Notes: generated by a model from the sequence alone, not told the origin. DNA of 64,000 bases from Dehalococcoidia bacterium (GCA_965221295.1 OZ244879.1:3281603-3345602); one strand, 5' to 3'. Counted from the stretch's first letter, positions 263 to 62,135 are shown. Program-made: numbers and translations.

Positions 263-1747
263 ATGCCCGTCTATCTTCGTTCCTTCCGATTACGGGGTTT
301 GGCCCGAGGGGCGCTTTTGGCCCTGGCATTGCTTGGCGTCGCCGCGTTGGCGGCGTGCACCCAACCGGCAACCCCCGATTCCGCGGCGCCGCCCACGGAA
401 CCACCGCTGATTCCAGCCACTGCGCCCTCCCCCGACCAGGCGGCCGCCGTATCCGACTTCGCCAGCCAACACGCCGCCATCGTTGAGGAATGGAACCTAC
501 TGCACGACGACTTTGACCAATGGAGCGCGGGCCTGTCCGCCTGCCACCCCAACGCCATGCACCTGGCCCTCAACGAACTGGCCGTCTCGTTCAATTCCGT
601 TACCCAAGGGGCTCGCGCCCTGTCCCGCGGGACGACCAGCAGCGAGTTGGCAGACTTGCTGATCGCCGCCGCCGAGGCGGAAGAAGCCGCATTTCGCCAG
701 CTGCGCGACCGTTGGCAACCCAACAACTCCACGCTATTCGAGAACGTGGAACTGCAACGGGCCAAGTCTTCCCAAGCCCAAAAGGACGCTGAAGACCGCG
801 CCATTGAACTTCGCGACGGCCTCCAGGACGCCGCCGACCCGGAGCAAATCGCAGCCTTCCTGGAAGTCTTTGAGGCGTTGAGCGAGGCCTGGAAAAAACT
901 AGGCGACAACTACGAGACCTTGCGGGACGGCGCGGATGACATGGAACTCGCCGCCGTCGCCAAGGGACTAGAAGAACATGTCGCTGGGCTGAAATCCATC
1001 GCTGACGCGATTTCTGAACTACCCGAACTGGAAGGCGCCGAAGACGCGGTGGAGCTACTGACCAGCGCCGCAAAGGCAGAGTCGGAAGCCTTTTCCGACA
1101 TCGTCGACTCCCTGGCCAAGGATCAGGCCGCCAAAACCACCAGCGCCGCCCAGAGCGACGACGCCTCATCGGACGATGCCGACGCCGACGCTGAGTCCGG
1201 CGCCGCCGCCGACGCGTCCACAGCGACAGCCAGCGCCAGCGCCGACGCGCAACTTCCTGACTTCGACCCACTCGACCACGCCGTAGAAGCCAGCGCCGCA
1301 GCCCTCAAGCAGGCCAGCCGCGCCATCGACGGCCTCGCCGACCCCGACGCCGAAAGGACTCTCGCCGAGCTGCAGACGTTCGATACCGAATACCAGAGTC
1401 TGCTCGCATCCTGGTTGTCCTTCCACCAAGCCTACAATGATTGGCGCATGGACGATGGCGGCTGCGACCGAGCGCAGGTAATCGCCGACCTGGATCAGTA
1501 CGCCCTGCGGATCACGTTGCTGGCCAGGGACGTGCGCGGCCTGCCCAGTTCGGGATACCTGCTGCCCATCTACTCCCTGCTCACCGAAGCGGCGGCCCGG
1601 GACGAAAACGCCTTCCGCACCCTCAGCTACACCTGGCAACCCTTCACCCTGGATTCGCTCAAGGCCGTTCATCAGGAAAGAATCAACACCGACAACCTCC
1701 GCAGAGAGGCGGAAATCGCCGTTCAGGAGCTGAAAAACAGGTCTTGA
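263..1747 (+). CDS. Secreted lipoprotein of unknown function with an internally duplicated helical domain
   Basis: N-terminal signal with lipobox LAAC. Two similar halves, each with W..F..W...C ... AAE.E.AFR.L...WQP, separated by an Ala/Asp/Ser-rich linker. Confidence 0.65.
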   Translation: MPVYLRSFRLRGLARGALLALALLGVAALAACTQPATPDSAAPPTEPPLIPATAPSPDQAAAVSDFASQHAAIVEEWNLLHDDFDQWSAGLSACHPNAMHLALNELAVSFNSVTQGARALSRGTTSSELADLLIAAAEAEEAAFRQLRDRWQPNNSTLFENVELQRAKSSQAQKDAEDRAIELRDGLQDAADPEQIAAFLEVFEALSEAWKKLGDNYETLRDGADDMELAAVAKGLEEHVAGLKSIADAISELPELEGAEDAVELLTSAAKAESEAFSDIVDSLAKDQAAKTTSAAQSDDASSDDADADAESGAAADASTATASASADAQLPDFDPLDHAVEASAAALKQASRAIDGLADPDAERTLAELQTFDTEYQSLLASWLSFHQAYNDWRMDDGGCDRAQVIADLDQYALRITLLARDVRGLPSSGYLLPIYSLLTEAAARDENAFRTLSYTWQPFTLDSLKAVHQERINTDNLRREAEIAVQELKNRS

Positions 1748-1813
1748 ACCAGCTCTTTGCCCGTGCACTGGCTGTTTGCCCGTGAGCGTGCCTTTTGATA
1801 AGGAGACCAGACC

Positions 1814-2725
1814 ATGGCCCTGCCACCGGACCGTATCGACTATCTGCCCATCATCGACCGGCCCATCATCAAATGGCCCAACGACGCTCGCGTCGCCCTG
1901 TGGATCTCCCCCAACGTGGAGCACTACGAATACCAGCCCGTCAATGAAGGCGTCCGCGACCCGTGGCCGCGCACCCCGTATCCCGACGTGCAGCAATACA
2001 CCTACCGCGATTACGGCAACCGAGTCGGATTCTGGCGGATGCTCGAACCCCTGGACAAGCACGGCATTCGCTGCTGCGTTTCCCTCAACCTGGCCGTGCT
2101 GGAGCACTTCCCGGAAATCGCTGAGGCCATGATCGAGCGCGATTACGACTTCATGAGCCACGGCATCTACAACACCCGCTACCTCTACACCTGCACGGAA
2201 GACGAAGAGCGCGAATTCTACCGCGACTGCATCGACACCCTGAAGCGACACACCGGCAAGCAGCTCAAGGGAATGCTTGGCCCCGCCATCTCCGGCAGCG
2301 TGAGCACGCCCGACCTCATGGCCGAGGCGGGCTTGATCTACCACACGGACTGGTTCCACGACGACCAGCCCACGCCGATCAAGGTCAACGCCGGCAAACT
2401 GGTTTCGGTGCCCTACTCCATCGAACTGAACGATTCTTCAGTACTGCGAGACAACCACTACAGCGCCGAATACTTCGCCGACATCTGCAAGGCCCAGTTC
2501 GACCAACTCTACGAGGAAGGAGCCGAGAGCGGGCGCGTCATGTGCATCGCCTTGCACCCTTTCCTGATCGGTCAACCCCACCGCATCAAGTACCTGGAAG
2601 ATACGCTGGACTACATCATGTCCCACGACGGCGTATGGCAAACCACCGCCGATGAAATCGCTGAGTATTACATCGCCAATTACTACGACCAGTCCGTGTC
2701 CCACGCCCGGCAGCTCGGCGGATGA
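1814..2725 (+). CDS. Polysaccharide deacetylase family protein (PuuE-type allantoinase-like)
   Basis: 303 aa. The N-terminal pattern IIKWPNDARVALWISPNVEHYEY and the later HG..H motifs are typical of the PuuE/deacetylase fold. GGAG precedes the ATG. Confidence 0.8.
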   Translation: MALPPDRIDYLPIIDRPIIKWPNDARVALWISPNVEHYEYQPVNEGVRDPWPRTPYPDVQQYTYRDYGNRVGFWRMLEPLDKHGIRCCVSLNLAVLEHFPEIAEAMIERDYDFMSHGIYNTRYLYTCTEDEEREFYRDCIDTLKRHTGKQLKGMLGPAISGSVSTPDLMAEAGLIYHTDWFHDDQPTPIKVNAGKLVSVPYSIELNDSSVLRDNHYSAEYFADICKAQFDQLYEEGAESGRVMCIALHPFLIGQPHRIKYLEDTLDYIMSHDGVWQTTADEIAEYYIANYYDQSVSHARQLGG

Positions 2726-9794: not shown

Positions 9795-10392
9795 GTCCTG
9801 GGTGAACGGCCGTTGGTTGTGGTCGACGAGATTGCCGCGCTTCGCTCGCAATGACAGTGGAGGCTGGGCGCTGGCGTTCCCCCAACTGTCATTGCGAGGA
9901 GCGCCTCTTTATCTGTCATTGCGAGGAGCGCCAGCGACGCGGCAATCCCGGCGCCTGGGCGAACGGCCGCCAGGCGTCGATGCCGAGCGGCCGTTGGTTG
10001 TGATCAACGAGATTGCCGCGCTTCGCTCGCAATGACAGTAAAAGAACGCTCGCAATGACAGCAAAAAGGGATCGCAATGACGGCGGCAAAGGGCGGGGGC
10101 GCCTCCCACAACTGCCATTGCGAGGAGCGCCAGCGACGCGGCAATCCCGGCGCCTGGGCGGACGGCCGCCGGGCGTCGATGCCGAGCGGCCGTTGGTTGT
10201 GATCAACGAGATTGCCGCGCTTCGCTCGCAATGACAGTGGGTGTGGATCGCTATGACCGTAGCAACCGTCATTGCGAGGAGCGTTAGCGACGCGGCAATC
10301 CCGGCGCTTGGGCGAACGGCCGCCGGGCGTCGATGCCGAGCGGCCGTTGGTTGCGACCGACGAGATTGCCGCGCTTCGCTCGCAATGACAGT
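9795..10392. repeat. Cluster of about 4 copies (plus fragments) of a ~125-bp MITE/REP-like palindromic element
   Basis: Units are bounded by TGTCATTGCGAGGAGCG..GACGCGGCAATC and GAGATTGCCGCGCTTCGCTCGCAATGACA, which are imperfect inverted repeats of each other. Full copies lie near 9906-10035, 10105-10235 and 10265-10390. Confidence 0.85.
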
Positions 10393-10447: not shown

Positions 10448-11968
10448 TCACAGGCCGCTGATTTCAAGCGTTCTAACCGCGTCGGCCTCGAAGTCGGCCA
10501 CGCGAATGGCGTGGTTGTTGGTGTCCGCGATGTACAGCAGAGGTTGACGGCCATTTTCGAAGACCGCGAAACTCAATCCGCTGGGCTCGCTGAAGGTCGC
10601 CAGTTTACCCGCGCCGTCGTGCAATCCCATGGCGCCGGAGCCCAGAACGGTTTGCGCCGAACGGGTCAGGGGCAGAATTTTCTTGATCTTGTGGTTGTAG
10701 GTGTCGGCGACGAACAACTCGCCCTGATGCCACTCGATGCCAATCGGATGCTGGAGGCGGACGTTGTGTTCCACCCCGTCGCGGTCGCCGAAGGCGAACA
10801 GGTCGATGCCCACCAACGTTGCCACCCGTCCGGTCGCCGGGTCGATGCCGGCGCTGCGCACACTGCTGGTTTCGGAGTCGGCGAAATATAGGATGGGGTC
10901 GCCGCTCCGGTCGTTGCCCACGACGATGCCGCTGGGCTGGGCCAGTGTCGCCTGCGCCAGTGGTCCGTTGTCGATGTTTTCGCCGCCCGTGCCAGCATGT
11001 GGACACACGGCGCCGTCGGCCAGCGACAACCGCCACAGCTGGTGTGTCCCAGCCATGGCGATGTAGAGGATGTCTTGGTGGTGGGCCAGATCCCAAGGAC
11101 TGCTGAGCGCGACCTGCGTACCTGGTCCCGCGGCGCGGCGGTCGTGTCCCTGTTGGCCCGTGCCGGCCACGGTGTCCACGATGCCGGCGCTGAGGTTGAC
11201 GCGGCGGATGGCGTGGTTCTCGGTGTCGGCTACGTAGAGGGCATCGCCCACCAGCTCCATCCCCTGTGGGTGGTTGAAGGCCGCGGTGGCATAACTGCCG
11301 TCTGCGAAGCCCTCGGCGCCGGATCCAATTGTGGCCTGCGTTTGTCCGTCCAGATCGGTGATCACGATGCGGTTGTGGTTGGTGTCGGCGATGAACAAGC
11401 GGTTGCCAGGGCCGTCGGCCAGAACCTTGCCGGGGAAGGCCAGGGGCGTGTCCTGAGCTTCCTCAGGCGTCAGGCCCAAGTCGCGTCGGTCGATCAGGCC
11501 TTGTTCGTCGAATTCGGCGATCATACGCCCCAGCAAGTCATCGAAAGCCTCGTAGGGCAGCTCGCCTTCATGTTTGCCGATGACCTTTCCCTCGGGGTCA
11601 ACGAACATCAGCGTGGGCCAGGCTCTACAGGCGTACTGCCGCCACACCTCGAACTCGGCGTCGTTGACGATGGGATGCTTGAGTTCGTAGCGTTGGGCCG
11701 CCAACAACACGTTGTCGGCGTATTTTTCGTTGGGGAATTTGGCGGAATGCACGCCAATGACCACCAACTCGTCCGCGTATTTTTCTTCCATTTTCCGCAA
11801 CTGCGGAAACACGTGGACGCAGTTGATTCAACAGTAGGTCCAGAAGTCCAGGATGACCACCTTGCCGCGCAGGTCGGCCATGCTGAGCGGCCGGTCGGTG
11901 TTGATCCATTCGACGCTGGCGGGGAAATCCGGCGCGTTGACGGCGCCGGCGAAAGAACGGGTGGCCAT
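10448..11968 (-). CDS. Thioredoxin-like domain + NHL-repeat beta-propeller protein (NHLRC2-like), predicted selenoprotein
   Basis: ATG at 11968 with GGAGG 9 nt upstream. The frame stays open through one in-frame TGA (11830-11828) inside FWTYC-U-INC. The C-terminal part has repeated NHL motifs (ADTNNHAIR-like). Confidence 0.75.
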
Positions 11969-11983
11969 GGGTTGATTCCTCCA

Positions 11984-12036
11984 GGGGTGATCTATTGCCG
12001 GGGTGATCTATTGCCGGGGTGAGCTATTGTCTGGGG
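11984..12036. repeat. 3 x 16-bp tandem repeat in the 76-nt spacer upstream of the selenoprotein gene
   Basis: GGGGTGATCTATTGCC occurs twice, then GGGGTGAGCTATTGTC, then a partial TGGGG. Confidence 0.9.
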
Positions 12037-16430: not shown

Positions 16431-16900
16431 AACGACCGTTGGTTGCGATCGGCGAGATTGCCACGGCCTTCGGCCTCGCAATGACAGACCGCGGCAACTG
16501 TCATTGTGAGGAGCGACAGCGACGCGGCAATCCCGTTGCTTGGGCGAACGGCCGCCGGGGCGGGGGCGGACGGGCGTTGGCTGCGGACGACGAGATTGCC
16601 GCGCTGCGCTCGCAATGACAGACCGTGGCAACTGTCATTGCGAGGAGCGCTAGCGACGCGGCAATCCCGATGCTTGGTTGAACGGCCGCCGGGGCTGGGG
16701 CGAACGGCCGCTGGTTGCGGACGACGGGATTGCCGCGCTTCGCTCGCAATGACAGGGGGAGGGCGCTCGCAATGACAGGAGGAGGGCGCTCGCAATGACG
16801 GTTGGGAGGGGATGCTCTCAAAGGCAGGGAGAGGGAATGCTCGCGATGACAGGGAGAGGGCGCTCGCAATGGCGGTTGGGAGAGGGCGCTCCCAATGACG
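16431..16900. repeat. Second cluster of the MITE/REP-like element, plus about six 22-27-bp tandem half-element units
   Basis: Two full elements lie at about 16431-16760. They are followed by repeated GGGAGAGGGCGCTCGCAATGAC units at 16754-16900. Confidence 0.85.
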
Positions 16901-25198: not shown

Positions 25199-26134
25199 CT
25201 ACCCGCCCTGTTCCTCCAGGGCGCGTTGCAGGTCGGCTGGGTCAACTTGCACCTCGACGCCGGAGCGCTCCTGCTGCAGCAGCATCGCCACCCGAGAATC
25301 GCGGCCAGCCCAGCCTCGGTTCAGCGCCTCGGTCATCTCGGCCAACGTGGTGTTGGCCAACTTCATCGGCACGTCGAACTCGCGACCCACCGCCACCGCC
25401 AGGTCAACGTCCTTACGCGCCAGGCGCAACGCGAAGTCCGGCGGGTCGTAGTCGTTGATCAGGAAGTGCTGAGCCAGCCCCTCGAACATCCCGCGGCGCC
25501 CGCCCGCGCCCTTGCGCACCGCCAACCACAGCGCCAATGGATCCACGCCGGCCTTGATGCCCATGGTGAACACTTCGGCCAGGGCGGTCTGCACGATGTA
25601 GCCCGCGCAATTGTGCACCAACTTGGCGACGGCGCCGCTGCCGATCGGACCCACGTAGTAGGCAGCGTCGCCGATGGAATCCAGGACCGCTTTGTGTTGG
25701 TCGAACACTGCCTTGTCGCCACCGACCCAGATGGCCAACCGGCCGCTGGAGGCTCCGGCTGGCCCGCCGCTCACCGGCGCGTCCAGCACGTTCACGCCCA
25801 AGGGAGCCACCCGGTCGTGGATCTGCCGGATCAGGGTCGGAGAGCTGGTGCTGAGGTCAAAATAGGCCTTGCCGCCAGACATGCCCGACATGATTCCGTC
25901 CTCGCCCAGCGCAACCGCCTCCACCTCCACCGGTCCGGGAAGCGAAGTGAACACCACGTCGCTGGCTTCGGCAACCTCACGCGGCGTGTCCGCCCACTGG
26001 GCCCCGGCCTCCAGGTGCTGGGTGGCCGCCTCCCGCCGGATGTCATGAACCACCATGTCGTTGCCACCGTTCAGGCAGTTGTACGCCATGCTGGCTCCCA
26101 TTGTGCCCAGGCCGATGAATCCTACTTTTGCCAT
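25199..26134 (-). CDS. NAD(P)-dependent oxidoreductase, 3-hydroxyisobutyrate dehydrogenase family
   Basis: The start was trimmed to MAKVGFIGLGTMGASMA (ATG at 26134, AGGAG upstream). The downstream content is family-typical. Confidence 0.85.
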   Translation of the reverse strand: MAKVGFIGLGTMGASMAYNCLNGGNDMVVHDIRREAATQHLEAGAQWADTPREVAEASDVVFTSLPGPVEVEAVALGEDGIMSGMSGGKAYFDLSTSSPTLIRQIHDRVAPLGVNVLDAPVSGGPAGASSGRLAIWVGGDKAVFDQHKAVLDSIGDAAYYVGPIGSGAVAKLVHNCAGYIVQTALAEVFTMGIKAGVDPLALWLAVRKGAGGRRGMFEGLAQHFLINDYDPPDFALRLARKDVDLAVAVGREFDVPMKLANTTLAEMTEALNRGWAGRDSRVAMLLQQERSGVEVQVDPADLQRALEEQGG

Positions 26135-26202
26135 AGCCAATTGTCTCCTGTAACAGTCCGGTTCTGCCGGCGCCGTCGAACGGCCCGGGGGCGTCATTCT
26201 AT

Positions 26203-26365
26203 CAGAGCGCGAACCGACCAGCGCGAGAACCCGACCAGCGCGAGAGCACGGCCAGCGCGAGAGCACGGCCAGCGCGAGAGCACGGCCAGCGCGAGAGCAC
26301 GGCCAGCGCGAGAACCCGGCCAGCGCGAGAACCCGGCCAGCGCGAGAACCCGACCAGCGCGGCGA
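26203..26365. repeat. About 9 x 17-bp tandem repeat in an intergenic spacer
   Basis: Units CAGCGCGAGA(G/A)C(A/C)CG(G/A)C start at 26219, 26236, 26253, 26270, 26287, 26304, 26321, 26338 and 26355. A degenerate unit lies at 26203. Confidence 0.95.
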
Positions 26366-27980: not shown

Positions 27981-29584
27981 AGCGGCTGCTTAGCTCCGTC
28001 GGCAATGGCAGCCTTGGCGATTCCTCGGAGCATCCCGCGGAAGATGAAGGCATGCGCCGGCCACAGCCCATACCAGTACAGGCGCCCGCATATCCCCACC
28101 GGGTCGAACTCGGCAGTCTGCCGAACGACGGCGCCTCCACCAACGGCAGGGTTGACCTCAAACTCCAGCCACGCCCGCCCGGGCAGCTTCATCTCCGCAG
28201 CTAGGCGCAAACGCTGACCGGACTCCAAGACTTCCACCCGCCACCAGTCCAAGGTATCTCCTGGCGCCAGGCGCTCCGGATGGCGCCGGCCCCGGCCCAA
28301 ACCCACGCCGCCGACCAGCCGGTCCAGCATTCCCCGTGTTTTCCAGAGATAGTTGGCGAAATACCAGCCCGTCGACCCGCCGATACGCTGGACGACGGCG
28401 AAGGCGGCTTCCGGCGGCGCGGCCACCGCGATCGTTCGGGTGTCCACGTGGCGGGCTCCAAAGCGGGCCGCCGCTCCACGGGGCGATCCGCCTGAGGAGG
28501 AAAGGGCGTCCGACCACCGGGTTTCGACAAACTCCCGGTCCTCGTTCCGCAAGGCTCCCGCGATGGCGTCGGCCACGCCTCGGGGACGTACGTTGAAGCC
28601 TTGGGCGGACTGGGGGTCTTCGACCACGCTGGCATGACGCAGGCTGTCCACCAGTCGTCGCCCAATGCGCGCGTAAACCGGCGTAACCAGCCCCAGCCAG
28701 AGACTGGACAATCGGGGTGTCAGCGCCGGAACTCGGATCATCCAGCGGCGCAGGCCCCGTTGCCGGGCGTATTCGTGCATCAATCCTCCGTAGGAAACTA
28801 CGTCGGCCCCGCCAATCTCCACGATGCGGCTCTCCTGGCAGTGTGGGCTCAGAGCCGCCTCCAGGTATGCCAGCAGGTCGTCGATGGCAATGGGTTGGGC
28901 TGGAACGGACACCCAACGCGGAGTGATCATCACCGGAAGCCGTTCCACCAGCGCCCGCACCACTTCAAAGGAAACGCTGCCGGAACCCACCACGATGGAG
29001 GCGCGAAACTCCAGAACGGACGCCCCCGAATCCCGCAATATCCTGCCGACCCGTTGCCGACTGCGCAGGTGCGGCGACAGGTTGGGCGTGTCCGGACCCA
29101 GCCCGCCCAGGTAGATGATCCGCCGCACGCCGCAGGCGCTGGCCGCCGCCGCGAAGTTCTGGGCGCCGCGGGACTCCTCGGCTTCGAAATCCCCGGATGA
29201 TCCCAGGGCATGGGCGAGATAGTAGGCGACATCGATGTCGCGGCAGGCGCGGTTCAGGCTGTCTGGATCCAGCAGGTCGCCTCGAACCACTTCGGTGTCG
29301 GCGGAGACAGTTGGCTGCAGAAACTCGGGCCGCCGCGCCAAGCACCGGACGCGGTAGCCCTTCCGTTCCAGCAACCCCAGCAATCGGCGGCCCACGTAGC
29401 CCGTGGAACCCACCAGCAGGATTCGCGGGCGGCCGTTGGGGTCGGTATCCGCTTGTTCGGGCGTGAATTCCGTGGGTGTGAATTCTGTGGGCGTGGTTTC
29501 AGTTGGCATGATTCCCGGCTCGCGGGGGAAATGGGCTAAAAGCGGGTTGGCGTCCTGCAAAAGCTTTGGCTCTTCACTCCTCAT
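27977..29584 (-). CDS. NAD(P)-binding SDR/epimerase-like domain fused to a DUF2867-like C-terminal domain
   Basis: ILLVGSTGYVGRRL Rossmann motif. The C-terminal YWYGLWPAHAFIFRGMLRGIA is typical of DUF2867. The start is uncertain: 29584 overlaps the methylase gene by 11 nt, and 29509 is the alternative. Confidence 0.75.
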   Translation of the reverse strand: MRSEEPKLLQDANPLLAHFPREPGIMPTETTPTEFTPTEFTPEQADTDPNGRPRILLVGSTGYVGRRLLGLLERKGYRVRCLARRPEFLQPTVSADTEVVRGDLLDPDSLNRACRDIDVAYYLAHALGSSGDFEAEESRGAQNFAAAASACGVRRIIYLGGLGPDTPNLSPHLRSRQRVGRILRDSGASVLEFRASIVVGSGSVSFEVVRALVERLPVMITPRWVSVPAQPIAIDDLLAYLEAALSPHCQESRIVEIGGADVVSYGGLMHEYARQRGLRRWMIRVPALTPRLSSLWLGLVTPVYARIGRRLVDSLRHASVVEDPQSAQGFNVRPRGVADAIAGALRNEDREFVETRWSDALSSSGGSPRGAAARFGARHVDTRTIAVAAPPEAAFAVVQRIGGSTGWYFANYLWKTRGMLDRLVGGVGLGRGRRHPERLAPGDTLDWWRVEVLESGQRLRLAAEMKLPGRAWLEFEVNPAVGGGAVVRQTAEFDPVGICGRLYWYGLWPAHAFIFRGMLRGIAKAAIADGAKQPL

Positions 29585-32483
29585 ACCGCACGTTTCGCGG
29601 CCGGGCCTTGCCACCGTGAACGGATGGTTCGGCGCACCACTTGGCGGCCAGGCGACGCACCGCGCGGTACACGTCATCTTCGAAGCCCAGCAGGTCGCAG
29701 ACGACGCGACGGTCCAGCAGGGCGCGGTTGGGGTCGGCGTCGGCCAAATAGGCGGGTTGCAACTCCAGGTCTCGGAACTCGTCGAAGATGGTCTCGGCAG
29801 TGGCAAGCTGGTCATCCGTGAGAGTACGGAAGTCAAGCACGGGTAGGGTTTCGGCGGAGCGGATGGTCATGCTCGCTTTGCTGGACTGTTGGCGGCTGGA
29901 ATGCCACCAATGCGATAGCAAACCCAACGTGCTGTTGCCCCAGATTGAGAAGGCATAGTCAAACCGTGAGTCTTCGAAGGACACGTTGGGCCATACTCGA
30001 CCGCCTGCTGATGGTTGGTTCGTAAAGGCTACAGAGAGCGCTTGAGACCCGAAAGTGAAATCACGGTTCAAATGGGCGCGGCTGACTGTGGCCCAAACTT
30101 CGGCAGCCCTGACCTCCATGCCAGGCCTAACTTGCAACGACTGGTCCGGAGCGCAGACCATCCGCGTTTCGCGAGGGGCGTGATGATTCCACAACGCCGG
30201 ATAAGATGCCGTTGGGCTGGCTGCAACCCGGGTAAAAGGCCCGTTGTGGGCGTCGCTGATGTAGAGCTGAGAATCGAGGCCGCGCTGCCCAACATCACTC
30301 AGTGGAGCGACGGGCAACGTCAGGCCTTCTAATCGAGTCGGCAACCATAGTTGGCCGTCCGAAAGAGCGTGGGCTACTTGGGCTAGGGTCGCGTCAGTCA
30401 GTCTCGCCGCGCCCCATCCGTTCTCATATCCGTCAATTGGAGCGTCCAATATTTCGCCATCCACCGTTGCGGCGTCGCCGCATTGAACGAAAATTCCTCC
30501 GTAGGGGCCGTCTTCCAAACGCCGTACCTCAGTCGCGTTTTGAATGGCGTCGGCGACTTCCCTGGCTTCGAGGAAACTCTGCGGCCGACGTCGAAGCGAA
30601 ACGAACTGCGCCCGGCCAGTGGGCGTATCGCTTTCCAATTTGCGGCGGGCGACCACCAAACATTCGGCAATGCCCGTATCCGACGAGAAGGACATGTCAT
30701 CGCCCTCAGCCGCGATGCTGACGATGGTAACGTCAACGTAATGCGTGGCGATCATCTGCCGGAACTTCGCCCAGGATGCGCCGTTGATGGCGGTAAAGGG
30801 CAACACCAGCGCCAGTACGCCGCCCGGTCGCAGTTTCTTGTCCGCGATGGCAGCGAACGCGGAACCCAGGCCGGCGTGGCCATGATAGTAGGAGTTCCGC
30901 GCCAGGCGAATCAGGCGGGCCGACATATCGTCCTGGTCTGCGACCGACGCGCCGAAGGCGGCAAAGGCGGCATTTTGCACGTTGCCGGCAGCGTCTCGGT
31001 GCTTGGTGTTGCTGGTGAACGGCGGGTTCATTATCACCAGGTCAAAGCCCTGGTCTGGCATGTCCGCTATGATCTGCGCCGCCGTTTCCTCGCCGACGCT
31101 GCCGGTGCGCCGCGCCGGGTCGCTGGTGTTGAACAGCGTCAACGCCGCAGAGGATTGAAGCAATTCCAACGAGCCAATGGCAACGCTGCCATCCCGTTGC
31201 CGCCCATAGGCCAGGGTATAGAGTCGCGAGTTATCAAACTGGACCGACGGCGCAATTCCTGAAAGGGTGGACCCGGTGATGTGAATGGCCGATGGCATTA
31301 CGTCGCAGCCGTAAAGCGTTTCTTCCAGCATCGTCGGATGCAACGCGGAGGGGTCTCCGCCGGTGCGTTCGTGGCGCGCGGCGATCTGCTGATACGCCGC
31401 CGACAGCAGAGCCCCCGTGCCGCAGGCGAAGTCGCCGACCCGCAAGGCGCCGATGCTTTCGCTACTGGACCAGTCAACCCCGCGCATTTTGCCGACAGCG
31501 AGCCTGGCCAAAAACGCCGCCGACGCCGGCAAGGTATAGAAGGTGGCCAGGTACTTGCGGTCAGCGATCAATCGTTGGAAGATGCGCCCGGTCAGGTCGT
31601 GGGCGATGCTGGCGCCGGCGCGGGATACTTCAAGGGCGGTATCCCGCAAAATTTCCAGTACCATTGCTCCCGGGCCAGAGGGAATATGTTCCAATATGTC
31701 CTTGGCGATGGAAAAAATCGCCCAGTAGTTGACCCTGAGAATTTCCCCCCACGCATCCAGCGTGTCTCCAAATGGGTTGCTCACATCCGGGCCGCAAACC
31801 AGGCGCAGTGGCTTGATGCCGTGGAACCCGGACAGCCGCTCGTGAAAAATCAGGGCGTTGGCGACGATGGCGCAGGCCATGCGCCGGGTTTGGGGAACAT
31901 CCGGCATCCCGAGCAAACTCGCGATGCTGGGCATGGTGTCCGGCCGCAGTTGATGCATCTGGTTGAGAACCGTCACGCCCCGCTCGATGCCCTGCTCCAG
32001 TTGCGCGGCCGCCAGGTTAACGGCGTTTTGGGGGATGGATACCAAACTGACCAGATCAGCCAGATCTGTTACCGAGCCTTGCAGCCAGCCCGTTTCGGGG
32101 AAGCGGCCGCCATCCTGGTACAGTACGGCGTAGGAAAGGCGGGCCTCGCATAGGGCGGAGCGAAGGTCGTCGGCAAAACGCACCGAATCGGGGTAGCGCA
32201 GCGCGATGGCGGCCTCGATTGGGTGCGCTTCGCCCACCACGGGCAGTCCGAGGCGTCCGGCGGCGTCGCCCTCGGCCGTCCCCAGGGCTTCGTATTGCGC
32301 TTCCACCACCACTGGAGCTCGGTCGGGCGCGGTGATGAGGTTGTCAAGCTGAAGGCCAGGCTGGCCGTCAATCAACTGCGTGTTCTCAGAGCGCGCCAGG
32401 CAGCCGAAGAGCATCCCGCTTAGCAGGTTGCCCAACTCGGCATTGACTCTGGGTTCGCTGTGTCTGGGCTGTTGGATGGTCAT
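29574..32483 (-). CDS. Large gamma-class N6-adenine DNA methyltransferase-like protein (type IIG/IIL-like architecture)
   Basis: 969 aa. Motif I VGDFACGTGALL lies upstream of motif IV VIMNPPF. There are long N-terminal and C-terminal extensions. A possible PD..E-x-Q lies at APDRAPVVVEAQ. Confidence 0.75.
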   Translation of the reverse strand: MTIQQPRHSEPRVNAELGNLLSGMLFGCLARSENTQLIDGQPGLQLDNLITAPDRAPVVVEAQYEALGTAEGDAAGRLGLPVVGEAHPIEAAIALRYPDSVRFADDLRSALCEARLSYAVLYQDGGRFPETGWLQGSVTDLADLVSLVSIPQNAVNLAAAQLEQGIERGVTVLNQMHQLRPDTMPSIASLLGMPDVPQTRRMACAIVANALIFHERLSGFHGIKPLRLVCGPDVSNPFGDTLDAWGEILRVNYWAIFSIAKDILEHIPSGPGAMVLEILRDTALEVSRAGASIAHDLTGRIFQRLIADRKYLATFYTLPASAAFLARLAVGKMRGVDWSSSESIGALRVGDFACGTGALLSAAYQQIAARHERTGGDPSALHPTMLEETLYGCDVMPSAIHITGSTLSGIAPSVQFDNSRLYTLAYGRQRDGSVAIGSLELLQSSAALTLFNTSDPARRTGSVGEETAAQIIADMPDQGFDLVIMNPPFTSNTKHRDAAGNVQNAAFAAFGASVADQDDMSARLIRLARNSYYHGHAGLGSAFAAIADKKLRPGGVLALVLPFTAINGASWAKFRQMIATHYVDVTIVSIAAEGDDMSFSSDTGIAECLVVARRKLESDTPTGRAQFVSLRRRPQSFLEAREVADAIQNATEVRRLEDGPYGGIFVQCGDAATVDGEILDAPIDGYENGWGAARLTDATLAQVAHALSDGQLWLPTRLEGLTLPVAPLSDVGQRGLDSQLYISDAHNGPFTRVAASPTASYPALWNHHAPRETRMVCAPDQSLQVRPGMEVRAAEVWATVSRAHLNRDFTFGSQALSVAFTNQPSAGGRVWPNVSFEDSRFDYAFSIWGNSTLGLLSHWWHSSRQQSSKASMTIRSAETLPVLDFRTLTDDQLATAETIFDEFRDLELQPAYLADADPNRALLDRRVVCDLLGFEDDVYRAVRRLAAKWCAEPSVHGGKARPRNVRYEE

Positions 32484-32500
32484 GCCAAGGGTCTGTGGTC

Positions 32501-32612
32501 AGCCGGGTCAATCGCTAGCCGGGTCGATTCCTGGCCGGGTCGATTCCTAGCCGGGTCGATCACTAGTCGAGTCGTTTGCGGGCCTGATAAATCGCCAGCC
32601 GGCTCAATCGCT
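32501..32612. repeat. 7 x 16-bp tandem repeat starting 18 nt upstream of the methyltransferase start codon
   Basis: The units are AGCCGGGTCAATCGCT, AGCCGGGTCGATTCCT, GGCCGGGTCGATTCCT, AGCCGGGTCGATCACT, two degenerate units, then AGCCGGCTCAATCGCT. Confidence 0.9.
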
Positions 32613-33190
32613 GCCGCCACTAATTCTAACCGATTTTGAACAATCTCCCCACACCGGCGCCCGCTCGTCGCCCGTTCCCAGCATAATTTCCGACGGTATC
32701 GGCGCCGGCCCCGCCGTGGCCGCCAACCTTGCGATTTCGGTTCCCAGGCCGTTCGCCGCTTCCATGATCCAGGCAAGGCTGGCGCCATGAGACGACGGAT
32801 TCGACAGCGCCGTCAACGGTGACGGCGATTGCGGCTATGGGCGGGGCGAACCCCTACTGGGGCGCCGCGCGTTAGTTCCCTCTGAACGGTCCGCGGACGC
32901 TACCGCGAGCCGGTTCTGTGCTTGACTTCCCGCGGGTCACGATTGCCGCGCGGCGTTCGCAATTGCCGGATTTTGGGCCGGCGCCGACCGGAGAGTGGGC
33001 CGGCGCCTATGGGTCGCAAAACGCGGCGAGCGCTGGAGATCAAGGTCGCCGGCCGATTCATCGGTCTGGCCTATCATCATCGTTGACGGCGTGATAGAAT
33101 CCTCGCGCAAAACTGGGACGCCCCACGGACTATTGCGGATCGCGGCCCGGCCATGCGACGGATGAATTTTTCGCTTTCTCAGAGGCAAAG

Positions 33191-45119: not shown

Positions 45120-45953
45120 TCATTCGCTCCGAAGTTGGCGGAGCTGGTTTTCCAACTCACGGACCCTGGCTTCGGCCCGGGCGCGAGCTTCGCGTTCTCT
45201 GGTCAGAGTTTCGCGTTCTCTGGTCAGAGCTTCGCGTTCTTGGGCAAAAGCCTCCCTGATCGATTCCAGAGTAGCTACGGGGTCGCCGCTTGCGGGGTCG
45301 CACCAGACCAGTTGCCCGTGGACCCAGCGGATGTCAACGTTCAGGATCGCGCTGTGCCCCTGGAGGCTGCCGTCGGGCAGTTCTACGATAGGAATGGGTT
45401 GGTATTGCTCTCCCACCAATCGGTCGCCGGCCAGCCGAGCGCCGTGGAATTGGCCAGTCTCGTCGAACCGCCAGTATTCCGGTATGTCCAGGGCGGCGTA
45501 GATGAACCGCTTGTCCACGGTGTCCCGACGCCCGGTGGAGGCTGAGGCGACTTCCAGCACAAAATCAGGCGGCTTGCCCTGCTCCGAGATGACGTAGCCG
45601 TTGCGGGCTCGAAACGCGGCTGGGTCTGCGTTGAAGGACAGCAGCATGTCGGGATAGGGTACGCCGGACATATCGGCGAGTTCGGCGGGTAAAACCCTGG
45701 TGAGGTAGCGGTCGCCGCCGATGACGGTGGTTTCCAGGTTGCCGAGGTGTTGAGCCAGGTAATGCGCGCCGCCGGTGATGGTCAGGTGGTCGAATACGGT
45801 CATCTTTTCGTCCGGGACCCATGGGGGATCCGGCAATTTGTAGAACGGTGGAGAGTCGGGCGATTTGGCGGTGGTCATATTGAGCCTCGCCGGGCCAGGT
45901 GGGAACTCGGTTGGTTTGAGACGCCTCAAGCGTTGGGTTAGATTATAACCCAC
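45120..45953 (-). CDS. Uma2-family (DUF820) putative endonuclease with a C-terminal coiled-coil repeat tail
   Basis: PDMLLSF...PDFVLEVAS...IPEYWRFD pattern. The tail EREALTRERETLTREREARARAE is encoded by 21-bp repeats at about 45183-45245. Confidence 0.75.
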   Translation of the reverse strand: MGYNLTQRLRRLKPTEFPPGPARLNMTTAKSPDSPPFYKLPDPPWVPDEKMTVFDHLTITGGAHYLAQHLGNLETTVIGGDRYLTRVLPAELADMSGVPYPDMLLSFNADPAAFRARNGYVISEQGKPPDFVLEVASASTGRRDTVDKRFIYAALDIPEYWRFDETGQFHGARLAGDRLVGEQYQPIPIVELPDGSLQGHSAILNVDIRWVHGQLVWCDPASGDPVATLESIREAFAQEREALTRERETLTREREARARAEARVRELENQLRQLRSE

Positions 45954-47200: not shown

Positions 47201-47275
47201 TATAATACGCGCGGAACATCGACTGGAACACGGCAACACGCGGAACAAATTAACACGCGGAGCACAGCAACATGG
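47201..47275. repeat. Degenerate 17-bp tandem repeats forming the leader and RBS of the following gene
   Basis: AACACGCGGAACAAATT is followed by AACACGCGGAGCACAGC, then AACATGG, which contains the start codon. Two weaker units lie upstream. Confidence 0.7.
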
Positions 47276-48096
47276 CAGATTTGACTCGAACGCGCCGCAT
47301 CGGGGCGCTGGTCCCCGCCACCAACCCGGTGGTGGAACCCGACTTCTACCGGGTGATACCCCCGGAGATCACGGTGCATTTCGAACGGATGTGGAACGGC
47401 GCCTGGGGCAGCCAACCCGATACAACCTCCGAGTCGGGGCACGTGCTCAGCATGACCAGCGCGGAGGCCAACGAGGTTGAAACGGCGCTGTTCGGGTTTG
47501 ACATCGCCAAAATGAACGACGACGTGGCCCGGGGCGCCAGCGCCCTGTCCAACATCGGGCCCGATCTGATGGTGTACGCCTGCACTTCCGGGACCTGGCA
47601 CAAGGGATACATGGCCTACGATCAGTCAATGGCGAAACTCATGGAGGAGGCCAGCGGCGTGGCGTCGATTACCGCCGTTGGTTCCTGCATCGCAGCCATG
47701 CGACACGTGGGCAGCCGCAAACTTAGCGTCGCCGGACCATACCGCAACTACCACCTGCGCAACCGCCTCAAGCCGTTGCTGGAGGAAGCCGGCTTCCAGG
47801 TCCTGAGCGCCGATGGGGCGCCATGGATGGAAGACTCCATGAACCCCCGTGAAATCGACATGGATCCGCCCCAAGCCATCATCGATTTTGCCGCTCAAGT
47901 GGCCCAGGACGACGCCGACACCATCTTCCTGCCGGGCACGGCGTGGCGCGCCCTGGACGCGGCTGAGGAACTGGAACAGCGTCTCGGCAAGACGGTGGTT
48001 ACCGTGAATCAGGCAACCATCTGGATGGCGCTGCGGCGGTTGGGATGGACCAAGCCCATCGACGGCTTCGGCAGGTTGCTGAGGAGCCTGGAGTAG
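47272..48096 (+). CDS. Asp/Glu/hydantoin racemase superfamily protein (maleate isomerase / arylmalonate decarboxylase-like)
   Basis: RIGALVPATNPVVEPDF and YACTSGTW motifs. Confidence 0.75.
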   Translation: MADLTRTRRIGALVPATNPVVEPDFYRVIPPEITVHFERMWNGAWGSQPDTTSESGHVLSMTSAEANEVETALFGFDIAKMNDDVARGASALSNIGPDLMVYACTSGTWHKGYMAYDQSMAKLMEEASGVASITAVGSCIAAMRHVGSRKLSVAGPYRNYHLRNRLKPLLEEAGFQVLSADGAPWMEDSMNPREIDMDPPQAIIDFAAQVAQDDADTIFLPGTAWRALDAAEELEQRLGKTVVTVNQATIWMALRRLGWTKPIDGFGRLLRSLE

Positions 48097-48581: not shown

Positions 48582-49646
48582 TTACCAGGACTTGAGGACG
48601 GGCAGTACTTCATTGGCGAAGAGTTGCAGGCTCCGTTCGGCGACTTTGAAGGGGACGCCGCCAAAGCGGAAGGCAACGTTCAGCTCAAAATCGCCGAGTA
48701 TCTGCCGGCGTTCTTCCAGGCCCCGCAGGATCTTGTCCGGGGTACCCCAGCTGGCGGCTTTCATAAAGCCTTCGACCGCTCCCTCGAGTCCGGCGGAACG
48801 GGCGATTTCGGCCTTTTGCTGATAGGCATCGTAGCCACGCACGGCGCCAAAGTGGTCGCCCAGAAACTCGTAGTGGTAGAAGTTGCTCTCCACGAACTTG
48901 CCCTGGTAGCGGCGGGCTTCGTCTTCGCACTGTTCCAGGTCGGCGCCGCACACCACGAACTCGGTGAGCATGAGGCTGGGCGGTTCCGTTCCGTGGATTT
49001 CACGATGCAGGGCGCGACCGCGTTCGATGCCCGGCATCCGCATTTCCCAGGGTCGGTCGGCGAACATGATGATGTGGGCGCCCAACTTGGCGGCGGACAG
49101 CACGGATTCGTCGCTGGCGGCCACGGCGTAGATGCGCCCGTCGAAGGAATGCTGCGGCCGGGGCCGGATTTCCGTCCGTTGCTGCGGATAATGTTTGCCA
49201 TCGCCTTCGATGAATCCGGTTCTGAGGGCCTCGACGATCATTGGGGCCGCCTCGTCGAAGCGTTCCCGTGATTCATCCATGCTGATGCCGAAGGCTTCAA
49301 ACTCGCGTCGGGCCAAACCGCGACCAAAGCCGAGACGCAGGCGTCCGCCGCTCAATAGGTCGAGGGTCGCGGCGTTTTCCGCGACCCGCAGCGGGTTGTG
49401 CCATGGCAGAATCACCGCGGCCGTGCCCACATCTATGTCGGGGTGTTTGGCGGCGACGTGAGTCATCAGTTGCAGGTTGTCGGGCACGAAAGAATAGTCG
49501 TTGAAATGGTGTTCAGCGGACCACAGGCAGTCGAACCCAGAGTCGGCGGCCATCTCGGCGAGGCGCAGCTCCTCCTGCCACATCTGTCCGTCTGTTCCCT
49601 CTTCCCAGCCGTAACTGGAGAAGATCATCATCATGCCGACGTCCAT
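48582..49646 (-). CDS. LLM-class (luciferase-like) flavin-dependent oxidoreductase
   Basis: FDCLWSAEHHF motif. 354 aa. AAGGAG lies 8 nt upstream of the ATG. Confidence 0.85.
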   Translation of the reverse strand: MDVGMMMIFSSYGWEEGTDGQMWQEELRLAEMAADSGFDCLWSAEHHFNDYSFVPDNLQLMTHVAAKHPDIDVGTAAVILPWHNPLRVAENAATLDLLSGGRLRLGFGRGLARREFEAFGISMDESRERFDEAAPMIVEALRTGFIEGDGKHYPQQRTEIRPRPQHSFDGRIYAVAASDESVLSAAKLGAHIIMFADRPWEMRMPGIERGRALHREIHGTEPPSLMLTEFVVCGADLEQCEDEARRYQGKFVESNFYHYEFLGDHFGAVRGYDAYQQKAEIARSAGLEGAVEGFMKAASWGTPDKILRGLEERRQILGDFELNVAFRFGGVPFKVAERSLQLFANEVLPVLKSW

Positions 49647-49701
49647 TCGAAATCTCCTTGGATGCGCAATCGGTAAAGGACCAGGCCCAGGGCCCGGCGA
49701 T

Positions 49702-49797
49702 GGGATAAGCCTGGCTTGGGATAAGCTTGGCTCGGGATAAACCTCGCTTGGTATTAGCCTCGCTTGGCATGAGCCTCGCTGGGTATGTGCTTCAGAC
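49702..49797. repeat. 6 x 16-bp tandem repeat filling the spacer between the SDR and LLM genes
   Basis: The units are GGGATAAGCCTGGCTT, GGGATAAGCTTGGCTC, GGGATAAACCTCGCTT, GGTATTAGCCTCGCTT, GGCATGAGCCTCGCTG and GGTATGTGCTTCAGAC. The last unit overlaps the SDR stop. Confidence 0.9.
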
Positions 49798-50634: not shown

Positions 50635-50831
50635 GGTTCATTCCCTTCTTCTGGAGGTATCTGAGGAGGTTTCGTGGGGATACCGAAGCGTCGCCGGCTA
50701 GGGTTTGCTGCCGGCCAACCGATTGTCGGGTACTGTACTACAAATCGGCGCGAGTTGGTAACGGTTCAAGTTGCCTCGCGTCCACCCGGTTCCCCAAAGG
50801 AGTCATGCGGTGTAACGGTCAAGTATCCACC

Positions 50832-50909
50832 ATCGCGTGGCGCCGGCGCTGGTATCGCGTAGCGACGGCGCTGGCATCGCGTGGCGACGGCGCTGGCATC
50901 CGGTGTCGC
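50832..50909. repeat. 3.5 x 22-bp tandem repeat next to a solitary MITE half-site (50917-50950)
   Basis: The units are ATCGCGTGGCGCCGGCGCTGGT, ATCGCGTAGCGACGGCGCTGGC, ATCGCGTGGCGACGGCGCTGGC and a partial ATCCGGTGTCGC. TGTCATTGCGAGCGCAGCGCGGCAATCTC follows. Confidence 0.85.
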
Positions 50910-59378: not shown

Positions 59379-59734
59379 GGGATCTCCTGTTGAGGCATAG
59401 CGTTTATTGCCGGTTCAGTCTATCCCAGGCCATGGGGAGGCGCAACTGGACCGGATGGTTCACGGCGTCCTTTGGGATCAGCGGCCCCGCGCGCCGGCGG
59501 CCGTTCGCTCAATGACAGGCGACTCGCTCCCGGGCCGGCCGCACCGATTGGCCCACACGCGCGGTTTTTGCGACATGCAAGTGACCACTGGGAAAGGCGC
59601 GCCTGACGGATTCCTCGAAACCGTCTATAATCCATGCGCGCTGGGGCCCGTCATTCCATGTGGGCCAAGCCCAATCGAATTGGGTCGATGGACGGACAAC
59701 TACGGTTGCCCAGATTGCGCCCGTTGCACTGAAA

Positions 59735-59764
59735 ATCGGTTGCCCCGATAATCGGTTCCCCGAT
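59735..59764. promoter_or_regulatory. Two adjacent ATCGG-N4/5-CCGAT palindromes (candidate operator) upstream of the amidohydrolase-2 gene
   Basis: ATCGGTTGCCCCGAT, then TA, then ATCGGTTCCCCGAT. The pair ends 19 nt before the start codon. Confidence 0.4.
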
Positions 59765-59782
59765 ACAGGAGACTCCGCGACT

Positions 59783-60754
59783 ATGGCAGTAAGAGTCCTC
59801 GACGTTCATGCTCACATCACCCCGGGCAGCGCGCTGCGGGCCATGCAGAGCGGCGACAGCTGGTTCGGCGTCGGCGCGCCCGCTCTTTACAACCAGCATC
59901 GTTACAATCCTCGCACCTTCTGGACGCCGGAGCAGCGCATCGCAGATATGCAGTCCCTGGGAGTGGACTTGCACGTTCTCTCCAGCAACGCCGGTTTGTA
60001 CTTCTACGACCTGGACCCCGACCAGACCATGACCATGCACCGGGAGTGCAACGACTACGTGGCCCAACTGACCCAGGAGTACCCGGACCGGTTCGCCGGC
60101 CTGGCTCACCTGCCCATGCAGGACGTGGGGGCAGCCATCGAAGAACTGAACCGGGCTGTCGAGCAGCTGGGCCTCAAGGGCGCCATGATTGGCGACCACG
60201 TGAACGGGCGCACCTTCGACGACCCCTACTTTAACCCGCTGTGGGCCACTGCGGAACGATTGGGCGCGATGTTCCTGATACACCAGGGCGGCGACACCGT
60301 GGTTTCGCCCCGTCTCGACAGGTACCACCTGCCCAACACCATCGGCAACTTGGCAGAGCGGGCCGTAACCTTCGCGTCCTTCGTATTCGGCGGCGTCATG
60401 GACCGCTACCCAGACCTCAAGGTCTGCCTCTGCCACGGCGGTGGCTACACCTGCTACGGCATCGGACGCATGGATCGTGGTTGGCAGGTGCGCCCGGAGG
60501 CTCGCGTCAACATTGATCAACCACCCAGCGCCTACCTGAGTCGCTTCTACTATGACTGCCTGACCCACAGCGAAGAGGCCCTGCGAATGCTCATCGACAC
60601 GGTGGGCGTCGAGCAAGTGGTTTTCGGCACTGACTGGCCATTCGACATGTGCGCCGACTGGCCCGTCTCCTGGCTACTCGGATTGGACAGCCTATCCCGC
60701 GAGGAAAAGGACGCCATCCTGTTCGCCAACCTGGAACGCCTCCTGAACATCTAG
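59783..60754 (+). CDS. Amidohydrolase-2 family protein (ACMSD-like decarboxylase/hydratase)
   Basis: The start was trimmed to MAVRVLDVHAHI (HxH). It has an HGGG motif and a C-terminal FGTDWPF. Confidence 0.85.
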   Translation: MAVRVLDVHAHITPGSALRAMQSGDSWFGVGAPALYNQHRYNPRTFWTPEQRIADMQSLGVDLHVLSSNAGLYFYDLDPDQTMTMHRECNDYVAQLTQEYPDRFAGLAHLPMQDVGAAIEELNRAVEQLGLKGAMIGDHVNGRTFDDPYFNPLWATAERLGAMFLIHQGGDTVVSPRLDRYHLPNTIGNLAERAVTFASFVFGGVMDRYPDLKVCLCHGGGYTCYGIGRMDRGWQVRPEARVNIDQPPSAYLSRFYYDCLTHSEEALRMLIDTVGVEQVVFGTDWPFDMCADWPVSWLLGLDSLSREEKDAILFANLERLLNI

Positions 60755-60863: not shown

Positions 60864-60935
60864 AAACCAACACGCAGGACCAAACCGACACGGAAAACCA
60901 ACCCAACACCCAGCAACAAACCAACACGGAGGAAA
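60864..60935. repeat. 4 x 18-bp CA-rich tandem repeat forming the leader and RBS of the VOC gene
   Basis: The units are AAACCAACACGCAGGACC, AAACCGACACGGAAAACC, AACCCAACACCCAGCAAC and AAACCAACACGGAGGAAA. The last unit carries the Shine-Dalgarno sequence. Confidence 0.8.
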
Positions 60936-60941
60936 GAAAAC

Positions 60942-61337
60942 ATGGGACTCATCGCCGACAACATACGGCTCAAGGCCATCAATCACATCACCTACAACGT
61001 GCGCGACAAAGACATCGCGCTCAAGTGGTACCAGGAAGTCCTGGGCGTCAAGCAGATACCCAAGATGGTTGACAGCGACAACCTCTACTGGCTGCAGTTG
61101 CCCAGCGGAGCCATGGTGCACATCATCGAGAACCCCGACGCGCCCTCCGCGCCGTCCCATCACACCGCCTTCGAGGTGGACGACATCTCAGCGGCCCGCG
61201 ACGAGCTGCAGAGCATCGGGGTGGAATGCACCGACATTCAGACCCGCCACGATGGGCAGCAGGCGTTCTACTTCCACGACCCCGACCACAACCGCCTGGA
61301 AATCTGCACCAAGTCAGGCTTCGGCGTGCTGGTGTAG
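60942..61337 (+). CDS. VOC (glyoxalase/bleomycin-resistance/dioxygenase) family protein
   Basis: 131 aa. Has INHITYNV...HTAFEV...FHDPDHNRLE metal-ligand contexts. Confidence 0.8.
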   Translation: MGLIADNIRLKAINHITYNVRDKDIALKWYQEVLGVKQIPKMVDSDNLYWLQLPSGAMVHIIENPDAPSAPSHHTAFEVDDISAARDELQSIGVECTDIQTRHDGQQAFYFHDPDHNRLEICTKSGFGVLV

Positions 61338-61957: not shown

Positions 61958-62135
61958 TTTGAAATCTCCCGGTTCCGTATCCTGAAATCTCCCGAATCCA
62001 TATTAATGTATCAAGCTTTGGCCAGTGAGGCAACTTGGAACGGCGCAACCAGTCAGCGTTCACTCCACGGAGCCGCATTGACGGGCTAAAATTGTGAAAC
62101 GCATCGTTTGCATTGCGCGGGCGTTCTCCGGCCCG

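Follow-up and report, generated by a model that had tools for sequence, protein, structure and literature searches.

The short tandem arrays that occupy many intergenic spacers of this genome are interpreted as young minisatellites born at the loci where they lie, by-products of a genome-wide process of short duplication with a preferred length of 15-17 bp, and we assign this reading a probability of roughly 0.7. The arrays are abundant, local in sequence and recent, they show no specificity for start codons, their unit lengths form a distinct mode, and within genes they are filtered by reading frame. The sequence-only reading, which had noticed spacers filled by 16-18-bp arrays just upstream of genes, was right that the arrays are real, but its side claims on the period and on the unit carrying the Shine-Dalgarno (SD) sequence either failed or needed trimming.

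The genome analyzed here (G000) is a single contig (C1) of 3.37 Mb with 62.5% G+C, and the window, which is the whole 64-kb stretch of DNA that was analyzed, corresponds to C1:3281603-3345602. The host lineage is an uncultured, SAR202-type member of the Dehalococcoidia, and the host genome is sponge-associated. Many of its close relatives are sponge-associated, chromosome-level MAGs, and the genus contains at least 19 species, with 79-91% protein identity for one window gene. Relatives are labelled G001-G030 and their loci are given L-numbers. Arrays were detected with TRF in the window and in the whole genome (1619 rows, reduced to 1066 non-redundant arrays), and a Markov-3 simulation of the same genome served as the chance baseline. 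Gene positions are those of our own crude codon-usage caller, with no curated annotation, which yielded 2807 genes in a first pass and 3233 in a second (about 84% coding).

Arrays in the 64-kb window

All seven arrays previously listed for the window were recovered by TRF, although the repeat at 1756-1797 was weak, and a further non-coding array that had been absent from that list was found upstream of the gene at 59783..60754 (Table 1). The duplication reported as 12 nt long at 61960/61984 exists, but it is actually an imperfect duplication of a 24-nt unit.

Table 1. Tandem repeats and associated sequence elements in the 64-kb window (window positions).
Feature	Position	Strand	Unit (nt) x copies	Matches	Remarks
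Weak repeat	1756-1797		19 x 2.2	79%	TRF; score 47
Shine-Dalgarno GGAGG	11978..11982	minus			Gene starting at 11968; outside the repeated unit
Array	11984-12029		16 x 2.9	96%	TRF; feature 11984..12036
Putative extended -10 element TGATAGAAT	26196..26204	minus			About 55-67 nt 5' of the ATG
Array	26203-26361		17 x 9.4	93%	TRF
Array	32500-32616		16 x 4.6		TRF; about 7 units; 48-nt super-period also
Coding array	45185-45240		21 x 2.7		In-frame in predicted gene 45120..45878 (minus), near its 3' end
Array	47225-47272		17 x 2.8	74%	TRF
Array	49701-49780		16 x 5.0	82%	TRF
REP-linked array	50831-50900		22 x 3.2		Beside REP-type hairpin arm (GTCATTGCGAGCG...)
Extra non-coding array	59723-59765		16 x 2.8		TRF; 5' of 59783..60754 (plus)
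Array	60864-60933		18 x 3.9	71%	TRF
Imperfect duplication	61960..62007		24 x 2		TGAAATCTCCCG...

The array at 11984 lies in the 76-nt spacer between the stop codon of a HEPN/nucleotidyltransferase gene (12045, minus) and the ATG of a thioredoxin/NHL gene (11968, minus). The sequence-only reading had derived the repeated unit from the SD sequence at this locus, but only 7 of 16 positions agree between the SD segment and the unit, and in relatives this segment is part of the ancestral, unrepeated spacer. The gene downstream of this array (10448..11968) encodes a thioredoxin-like/NHL-repeat protein and carries an in-frame TGA at 11828-11830 (minus) within the FWTYC-U-(I/V)NC redox motif. Both this TGA and a downstream TTTCCGCAGTTGCGGAAA hairpin are conserved in 11 species of the genus, and a tRNA-Sec is present in the genome at C1:2150150-2150246.

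The array at 26203, in which neighbouring units are identical in blocks (4 + 2) when the units are aligned in register, lies directly upstream of the putative promoter -10 element of a 3-hydroxyisobutyrate-dehydrogenase-like gene (25199..26134, minus) and would therefore not be in the leader of that gene. The array at 32500 precedes an Eco57I-like methyltransferase gene (Pfam; ATG at 32483, minus) and is itself preceded by a -10-like TAGAAT; it would be transcribed as a leader if the TAGAAT promoter were used. In the 111-nt divergent spacer that holds the array at 47225, the repeats lie downstream of TGTATAAT, and the last unit bears the GGAG of an arylmalonate-decarboxylase-like gene (47272..48096, plus; Pfam). 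The array at 49701 adjoins the stop codon of the upstream SDR gene (49792, minus) and ends 55 nt from the ATG of a luciferase-like monooxygenase gene (49646, minus), with the SD outside the array. At 60864, the last unit (AAACCAACACGGAGGAAA) bears the SD of a glyoxalase-family gene (60942..61337, plus), and the units upstream of it have none. The weak repeat at 1756 sits in a 66-nt spacer between the genes at 317..1747 and 1814..2725 (plus).

The genes downstream of the arrays are functionally unrelated, encoding a thioredoxin/NHL selenoprotein, a 3-hydroxyisobutyrate-dehydrogenase-like protein, an Eco57I-like methyltransferase, an arylsulfotransferase, an arylmalonate-decarboxylase-like protein, a luciferase-like monooxygenase and a glyoxalase, and the genes near the window arrays are ordinary metabolic genes. 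No RNA structure signal was detected in the arrays, which folded no better than shuffled sequences (z -1.7 to +1.2), and an Rfam search of the window returned three tRNAs only. The coding array at 45185-45240 would give a 7-residue peptide repeat.

Abundance, unit length and unit sequence in the genome

The 1066 non-redundant arrays covered 129 kb, or 3.8% of the genome, and the density of all arrays was about 32 per 100 kb here versus about 3 in a 150-kb sample of E. coli. Arrays of 13-19 bp with a unit length not divisible by three (non-3n; score ≥ 50) occurred at 4.3 per 100 kb, compared with 0.18 per 100 kb in the simulation, which is about 24 times the chance level; the 150-kb E. coli sample, analyzed with a looser cut-off (score ≥ 40, period 10-30), contained 2 non-3n arrays, or about 1.3 per 100 kb. 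Most arrays consist of 2-4 units, some reach 17 copies, and the median match within arrays was 88%.

The period had been said never to be a multiple of three, a statement already at odds with the 18-nt unit at 60864 and not borne out genome-wide, where the numbers of intergenic arrays at periods 13 to 19 were 16, 34, 46, 55, 41, 20 and 15, respectively, so that 46 arrays had period 15 and 20 had period 18. A dependence on three is found within genes. Among arrays of period 9-40, 254 of 349 non-3n arrays were intergenic and 363 of 500 3n arrays were coding, with coding counts of 82, 114 and 53 at periods 12, 15 and 18. Perfect duplications gave the same picture, as coding DNA held one of period 14, one of period 16, none of period 17, and 43 of the 57 of period 15. 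Thus only 3n units persist within genes, as peptide repeats, and spacers tolerate any period.

Apart from this filter, the length envelope was alike in the coding and intergenic compartments. Perfect two-copy duplications were found 6, 9, 13 and 3 times at periods 10 to 13, versus 5, 4, 1 and 1 in the simulation, and 10, 57, 18, 18 and 16 times at periods 14 to 18, where the simulation gave none for any period of 14 or more. Intergenic arrays of at least three copies also peaked at periods 15-17 (15, 17 and 18 arrays), with few at 11-14, and the 15-17 mode is therefore not an artefact of detection.

The statement that units are unrelated between loci was borne out, since the best-rotation identities among 226 intergenic units followed the distribution obtained with shuffled units. 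A shared motif or a mobile family was ruled out on the same grounds, pairwise unit similarity being equal to that of shuffles. The base composition of the arrays (A 0.20, C 0.29, G 0.32, T 0.19) was that of the intergenic background.

An origin of the 13-19-nt arrays from REP hairpins was also ruled out. Only 4% of these arrays lay within 60 nt of a REP arm, versus 18% of intergenic bases, and 3 of 172 units bore a REP arm; the link holds only for arrays of 22-26 nt, 81% of which lay within 60 nt of a REP arm. In the window, the 22-23-nt arrays at 10024-10081, 16741-16899 and 50831-50900 are made from REP hairpin arms or lie beside them.

Arrays were about twice as dense in one arc of the chromosome (3.1 Mb through 0 to 1.2 Mb), which also had a lower coding density (0.76-0.82 versus 0.85-0.90 elsewhere). 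The GC skew was too weak to define replichores, and no strand or replication bias could be assigned from it. The sign of the skew switches sharply near 2.1-2.2 Mb, a possible site of the origin, and in that case the dense arc would lie on the terminus side.

Position relative to genes and comparison with relatives

To the sequence-only reading, the arrays looked like a mechanism of leader or RBS duplication or a class of cis-regulatory array just upstream of genes. However, the TRF scan revealed no excess of arrays near starts over convergent spacers, the outcome by which that proposal was to be judged refuted. In a test of 1317 spacers of 20-500 nt with confident flanking genes (arrays of period 12-30, score ≥ 50), convergent spacers had 0.81 arrays per kb, divergent ones 0.66 and co-directional ones 0.77 (chi-square p = 0.69). 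A looser first spacer test had given 0.56 per kb in convergent spacers versus 0.75 per kb in the others, a difference that was gone in the stricter set. Within co-directional spacers the mean relative position of arrays was 0.45 (0 = stop side, 1 = start side), and the fifth adjacent to the start was depleted (9 of 100 arrays). Relative to all unannotated DNA, arrays were enriched 1.6-fold within 150 nt 5' of starts and 1.5-fold within 150 nt 3' of stops, because they are depleted inside long unannotated stretches. When REP sequences were masked and weaker gene calls were added, the ratio was 0.92 for start-only and 0.62 for stop-only positions, which was not significant (p = 0.10). The equality of the spacer classes and the similar enrichment at stops and starts therefore indicate that arrays favour short spacers as such and not starts.

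The gene-proximal unit was said to carry the SD sequence in several arrays. This holds for two of the seven window arrays (47225 and 60864) but not for those at 26203, 49701 and 32500 (begun at 32501 in the sequence-only reading). SD-like 4-mers were present in 21 of 102 start-proximal units in the sense orientation versus 7 of 102 in the antisense orientation, and this sense-strand excess is as expected if local sequence near an SD is duplicated at random.

Sister species do not share the four G000 arrays at 11984, 26203, 49701 and 60864. None of these was present at the orthologous position in the 10-19 congeners compared, and the ancestral spacers were 30-55 nt long with the same SD kept. 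At the 11984 locus, no array is present in the seven congeners that share the upstream gene, in which the spacer measures about 45 nt (TAG ... CGCTATCAACCCACCTCTGGAGGCT..ATG), and the TGGAGG block at the SD is kept in 11 species; in G000, the stretch that directly precedes this conserved SD is present three times. At the 26203 locus, a block CTCTG-TAGAAT, with one variable base between its halves, was invariant in a 12-species alignment and present in most of 48 loci. To judge from this conservation, the block is probably the extended -10 element of the promoter. Upstream of it the sequence was unalignable between species, and no array of the 26203 type was present in the 11 aligned genus members. 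Three of about 47 related loci had unrelated duplications of their own (L213, 18 x 2.8; L208, 17 x 2; L193, 17 x 2).

At the 49701 locus, relatives either have an array-free spacer of 45-55 nt with the same SD or carry REP hairpins there. In G001 (L142), a perfect 14-nt tandem duplication containing the SD (AAGGAGTAATCGA x 2) precedes the orthologue of gene 48582..49646; it lies directly before the ATG and is a natural tandem pair of SDs. At the 60864 locus, most of 19 congeners have spacers of 30-45 nt ending in AAACCGGAGGGAAA, and none has the array of G000, where there are four 18-nt units with GGAGG kept only in the last; in G005 this spacer contains a different array of its own beside a hairpin repeat. 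Homologues of the methyltransferase gene downstream of the 32500 array occur elsewhere in other contexts without such an array, their orthology being uncertain, and in G008 (L167) a 17-nt duplication of independent origin (ACTCAACACCTCGTC..) directly precedes the SD of the homologue of 29574..32483. The comparison of spacers thus shows that the arrays are younger than the species splits. Duplications of the same preferred length arise repeatedly in the same variable spacers.

In other species, spacers that hold short arrays in G000 carry REP-type hairpins (GTCATTGCGAGCG...CGCTCGCAATGAC, or GTCATTCCGGCGAAAGCCGGAATGAC), as at L132, L137, L139 and L140 (49701 spacer) and at L147, L152 and L159 (60864 spacer), and G005 has a 20-nt array made of the hairpin arm, followed by the hairpin. 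Insertions of all kinds recur in a few hot-spot spacers.

The load of arrays, defined as the number of non-3n arrays of period 13-19 and score ≥ 50 per 100 kb, was measured in relatives on samples of 400-460 kb, not on whole genomes. It was 6.5 in G011, 5.2 in G010, 4.3 in G000, 2.0 in both G017 and G022, 0.75 in G002 and 0.43 in G029, compared with 0.18 in the simulation, so that the six relatives sampled span a range of up to about 15-fold. Because its closest relatives (G002 and G017) are 2-6 times poorer in arrays, the load of G000 represents a species-level burst. Loss of repeat-stabilizing genes was considered as a cause and rejected, because recJ and mutS are intact in G000 and in all 30 relatives, and xseA in G000 and in 29 of 30 (missing in G030). 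REP density did not track array load across the genomes.

Origin of the arrays and comparison with known systems

The process most likely to have produced the arrays would be RecA-independent misalignment during replication or repair, either slippage or template switching, by which a short stretch of whatever local sequence is present would be duplicated and existing arrays would expand further. The runs of identical units at 26203 are the pattern expected of recent expansion within an array. Selection would then act as a filter, allowing any period in spacers and only multiples of three in genes, and constraint at the start site may leave the last 20% of the spacer before the start codon under-populated. 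Where a duplication happened to include the SD, the gene-adjacent copy would keep it and the upstream copies would decay. The arrays are probably close to neutral. Individual arrays may still affect expression, and such effects would be incidental and locus-specific, for example because the leader is lengthened, an upstream promoter region is displaced or translational coupling is loosened. As in minisatellites and VNTRs, the units are locus-specific and arranged head-to-tail without spacers, turnover is fast and a frame filter is apparent. An exact-protein look-up and a metagenome pattern scan for another assembly of the species gave no match. The earlier proposal of a lineage-specific mechanism survives as a propensity for tandem duplication of about 16 nt, which sometimes duplicates an SD, but not as a mechanism that targets leaders.

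Plain slippage does not account for the length spectrum, as it predicts a steady fall with length, and duplications of 10-13 bp are at the chance level while those of 15-17 bp are frequent. Something sets a minimum or preferred length for the duplications. Flanking microhomology was inconsistent, with 29 of 93 perfect two-copy duplications having only 0-1 extra matching base; the distribution of extra matching bases was broad, and many perfect pairs lie inside older arrays.

These length data bear on the rival that we regard as improbable but retain as a minority view, because length preference and patchy load are unexplained by slippage and part of the perfect duplications lack flanking microhomology. 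It holds that a dedicated, sequence-independent process measures length, that its activity differs between species and that the arrays are its non-functional by-products. An enzyme might cut the two strands about 15-17 bp (about 1.5 helical turns) apart, with subsequent fill-in, as in integrase target-site duplications, or unprocessed flaps of fixed length might be ligated. The sharp 15-17-bp mode with a near-absence of 10-13 bp in both coding and non-coding DNA, the roughly one-third of perfect duplications without flanking microhomology, and the variation in load of up to about 15-fold in genomes that keep the classic repeat-stabilizing genes would all be consistent with such a process. The period, however, is a distribution (13-19 bp) and not a fixed number, no candidate enzyme was found, secondary expansion must be invoked anyway for arrays that reach 17 copies, and the 13-19-nt arrays avoid REP sequences, which alone among the repeat classes of this genome have a suspected nuclease partner. 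It is conceivable, though doubtful, that the SAR202-type genus harbours a sequence-blind duplication activity with a quantum of about 15-17 bp (about 1.5 turns) that burst in G000, G010 and G011 and not in their sisters. If this were true, one process would write both new spacer DNA and pentapeptide repeats and would be a bacterial counterpart of the repeat-forming process of Borg elements.

It is far less probable that the arrays are a functional class, either leader or RBS duplications or cis-regulatory arrays acting as standby sites, regulator binding sites or expression tuners, even though each listed window array lies upstream of some start codon, those at 47225 and 60864 include an SD-bearing unit, SD-like 4-mers are three times commoner in sense than in antisense, the arrays at 32501 and 47225 lie between -10-like boxes and an ATG, and start-only positions show a weak, non-significant advantage over stop-only ones (p ~0.1). 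Convergent spacers are as dense in arrays as the others and arrays are depleted beside starts; the orthologues in sister species manage with a plain 30-55-nt spacer and the same SD; the array at 26203 lies upstream of the conserved -10 element, and that at 49701 adjoins the stop codon of the preceding gene; about 200 different units would need about 200 different readers; and the duplication process also acts within genes. Assignment to a cis-regulatory class failed, as the units all differ and display neither conservation in orthologues, nor an RNA folding signal, nor a common function of the adjacent genes. That the arrays are assembly or sequencing artefacts has a probability close to nil. 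Assemblies are known to go wrong at tandem repeats, but here reading frames are respected, with non-3n perfect duplications almost absent from genes and 15-nt ones common there, and this frame filter rules out artefact as the source; in addition, independent assemblies of relatives have similar arrays elsewhere, and the chromosome is a single contig from a chromosome-level MAG series.

Under the preferred reading, that the arrays are young by-products of a short-duplication process, they should not be annotated as regulatory elements or conserved leaders. They account for spacers in G000 that are two to four times longer than those of sister species, and one mutational process supplies both spacer growth and in-frame peptide repeats, with frame selection visible in the period spectrum. 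Textbook slippage explains neither the preference for 15-17 bp nor the differences in load of up to about 15-fold among relatives that retain recJ, xseA and mutS. With dozens of chromosome-level genomes in the genus, the factor responsible can feasibly be sought by comparative genomics.

Phase-variable simple-sequence contingency loci, such as those of Haemophilus, Neisseria and Campylobacter, have units of 1-7 nt and functionally critical spacings and are tied to particular surface or restriction genes. As at those loci, a G000 array placed within a promoter, leader or 5' coding region could alter expression of the adjacent gene, but the G000 arrays differ in having units of 13-19 nt, no start specificity and metabolic genes downstream. 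The REP/Ssn-type arrays of G000 itself also occupy intergenic spacers, including the same variable spacers in sister species, but have periods of 22-26 nt or about 154 nt and belong to one common sequence family. Like prokaryotic VNTRs, the arrays are locus-specific direct repeats in spacers that are resized by misalignment and are enriched near both starts and stops, but their density in G000 is far higher and the distribution of unit lengths is unusually narrow. A survey published in 2025 found that prokaryotic tandem repeats are generally enriched in intergenic DNA, on both sides of genes (PMC12418385).

Among published systems, the arrays most resemble the tandem repeats of Borg elements of Methanoperedens, which are pervasive, have unique units, and are recent, genome-specific and absent from the aligned regions of relatives (Schoelmerich et al., bioRxiv 10.1101/2022.05.18.492195). 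In Borgs, the units of genic repeats are all divisible by three and those of most intergenic repeats are not (bioRxiv 10.1101/2022.05.18.492195). The G000 arrays likewise have a unique unit per locus, a genome-specific occurrence and mostly 3n units in genes. Borg repeats differ in being perfect, with a strong enrichment in A and units of 18-36 nt in the examples given, whereas the arrays of G000 have a median match of 88%, the composition of the background and units clustering at 15-17 nt, and are located on a bacterial chromosome and not on an archaeal extrachromosomal element.
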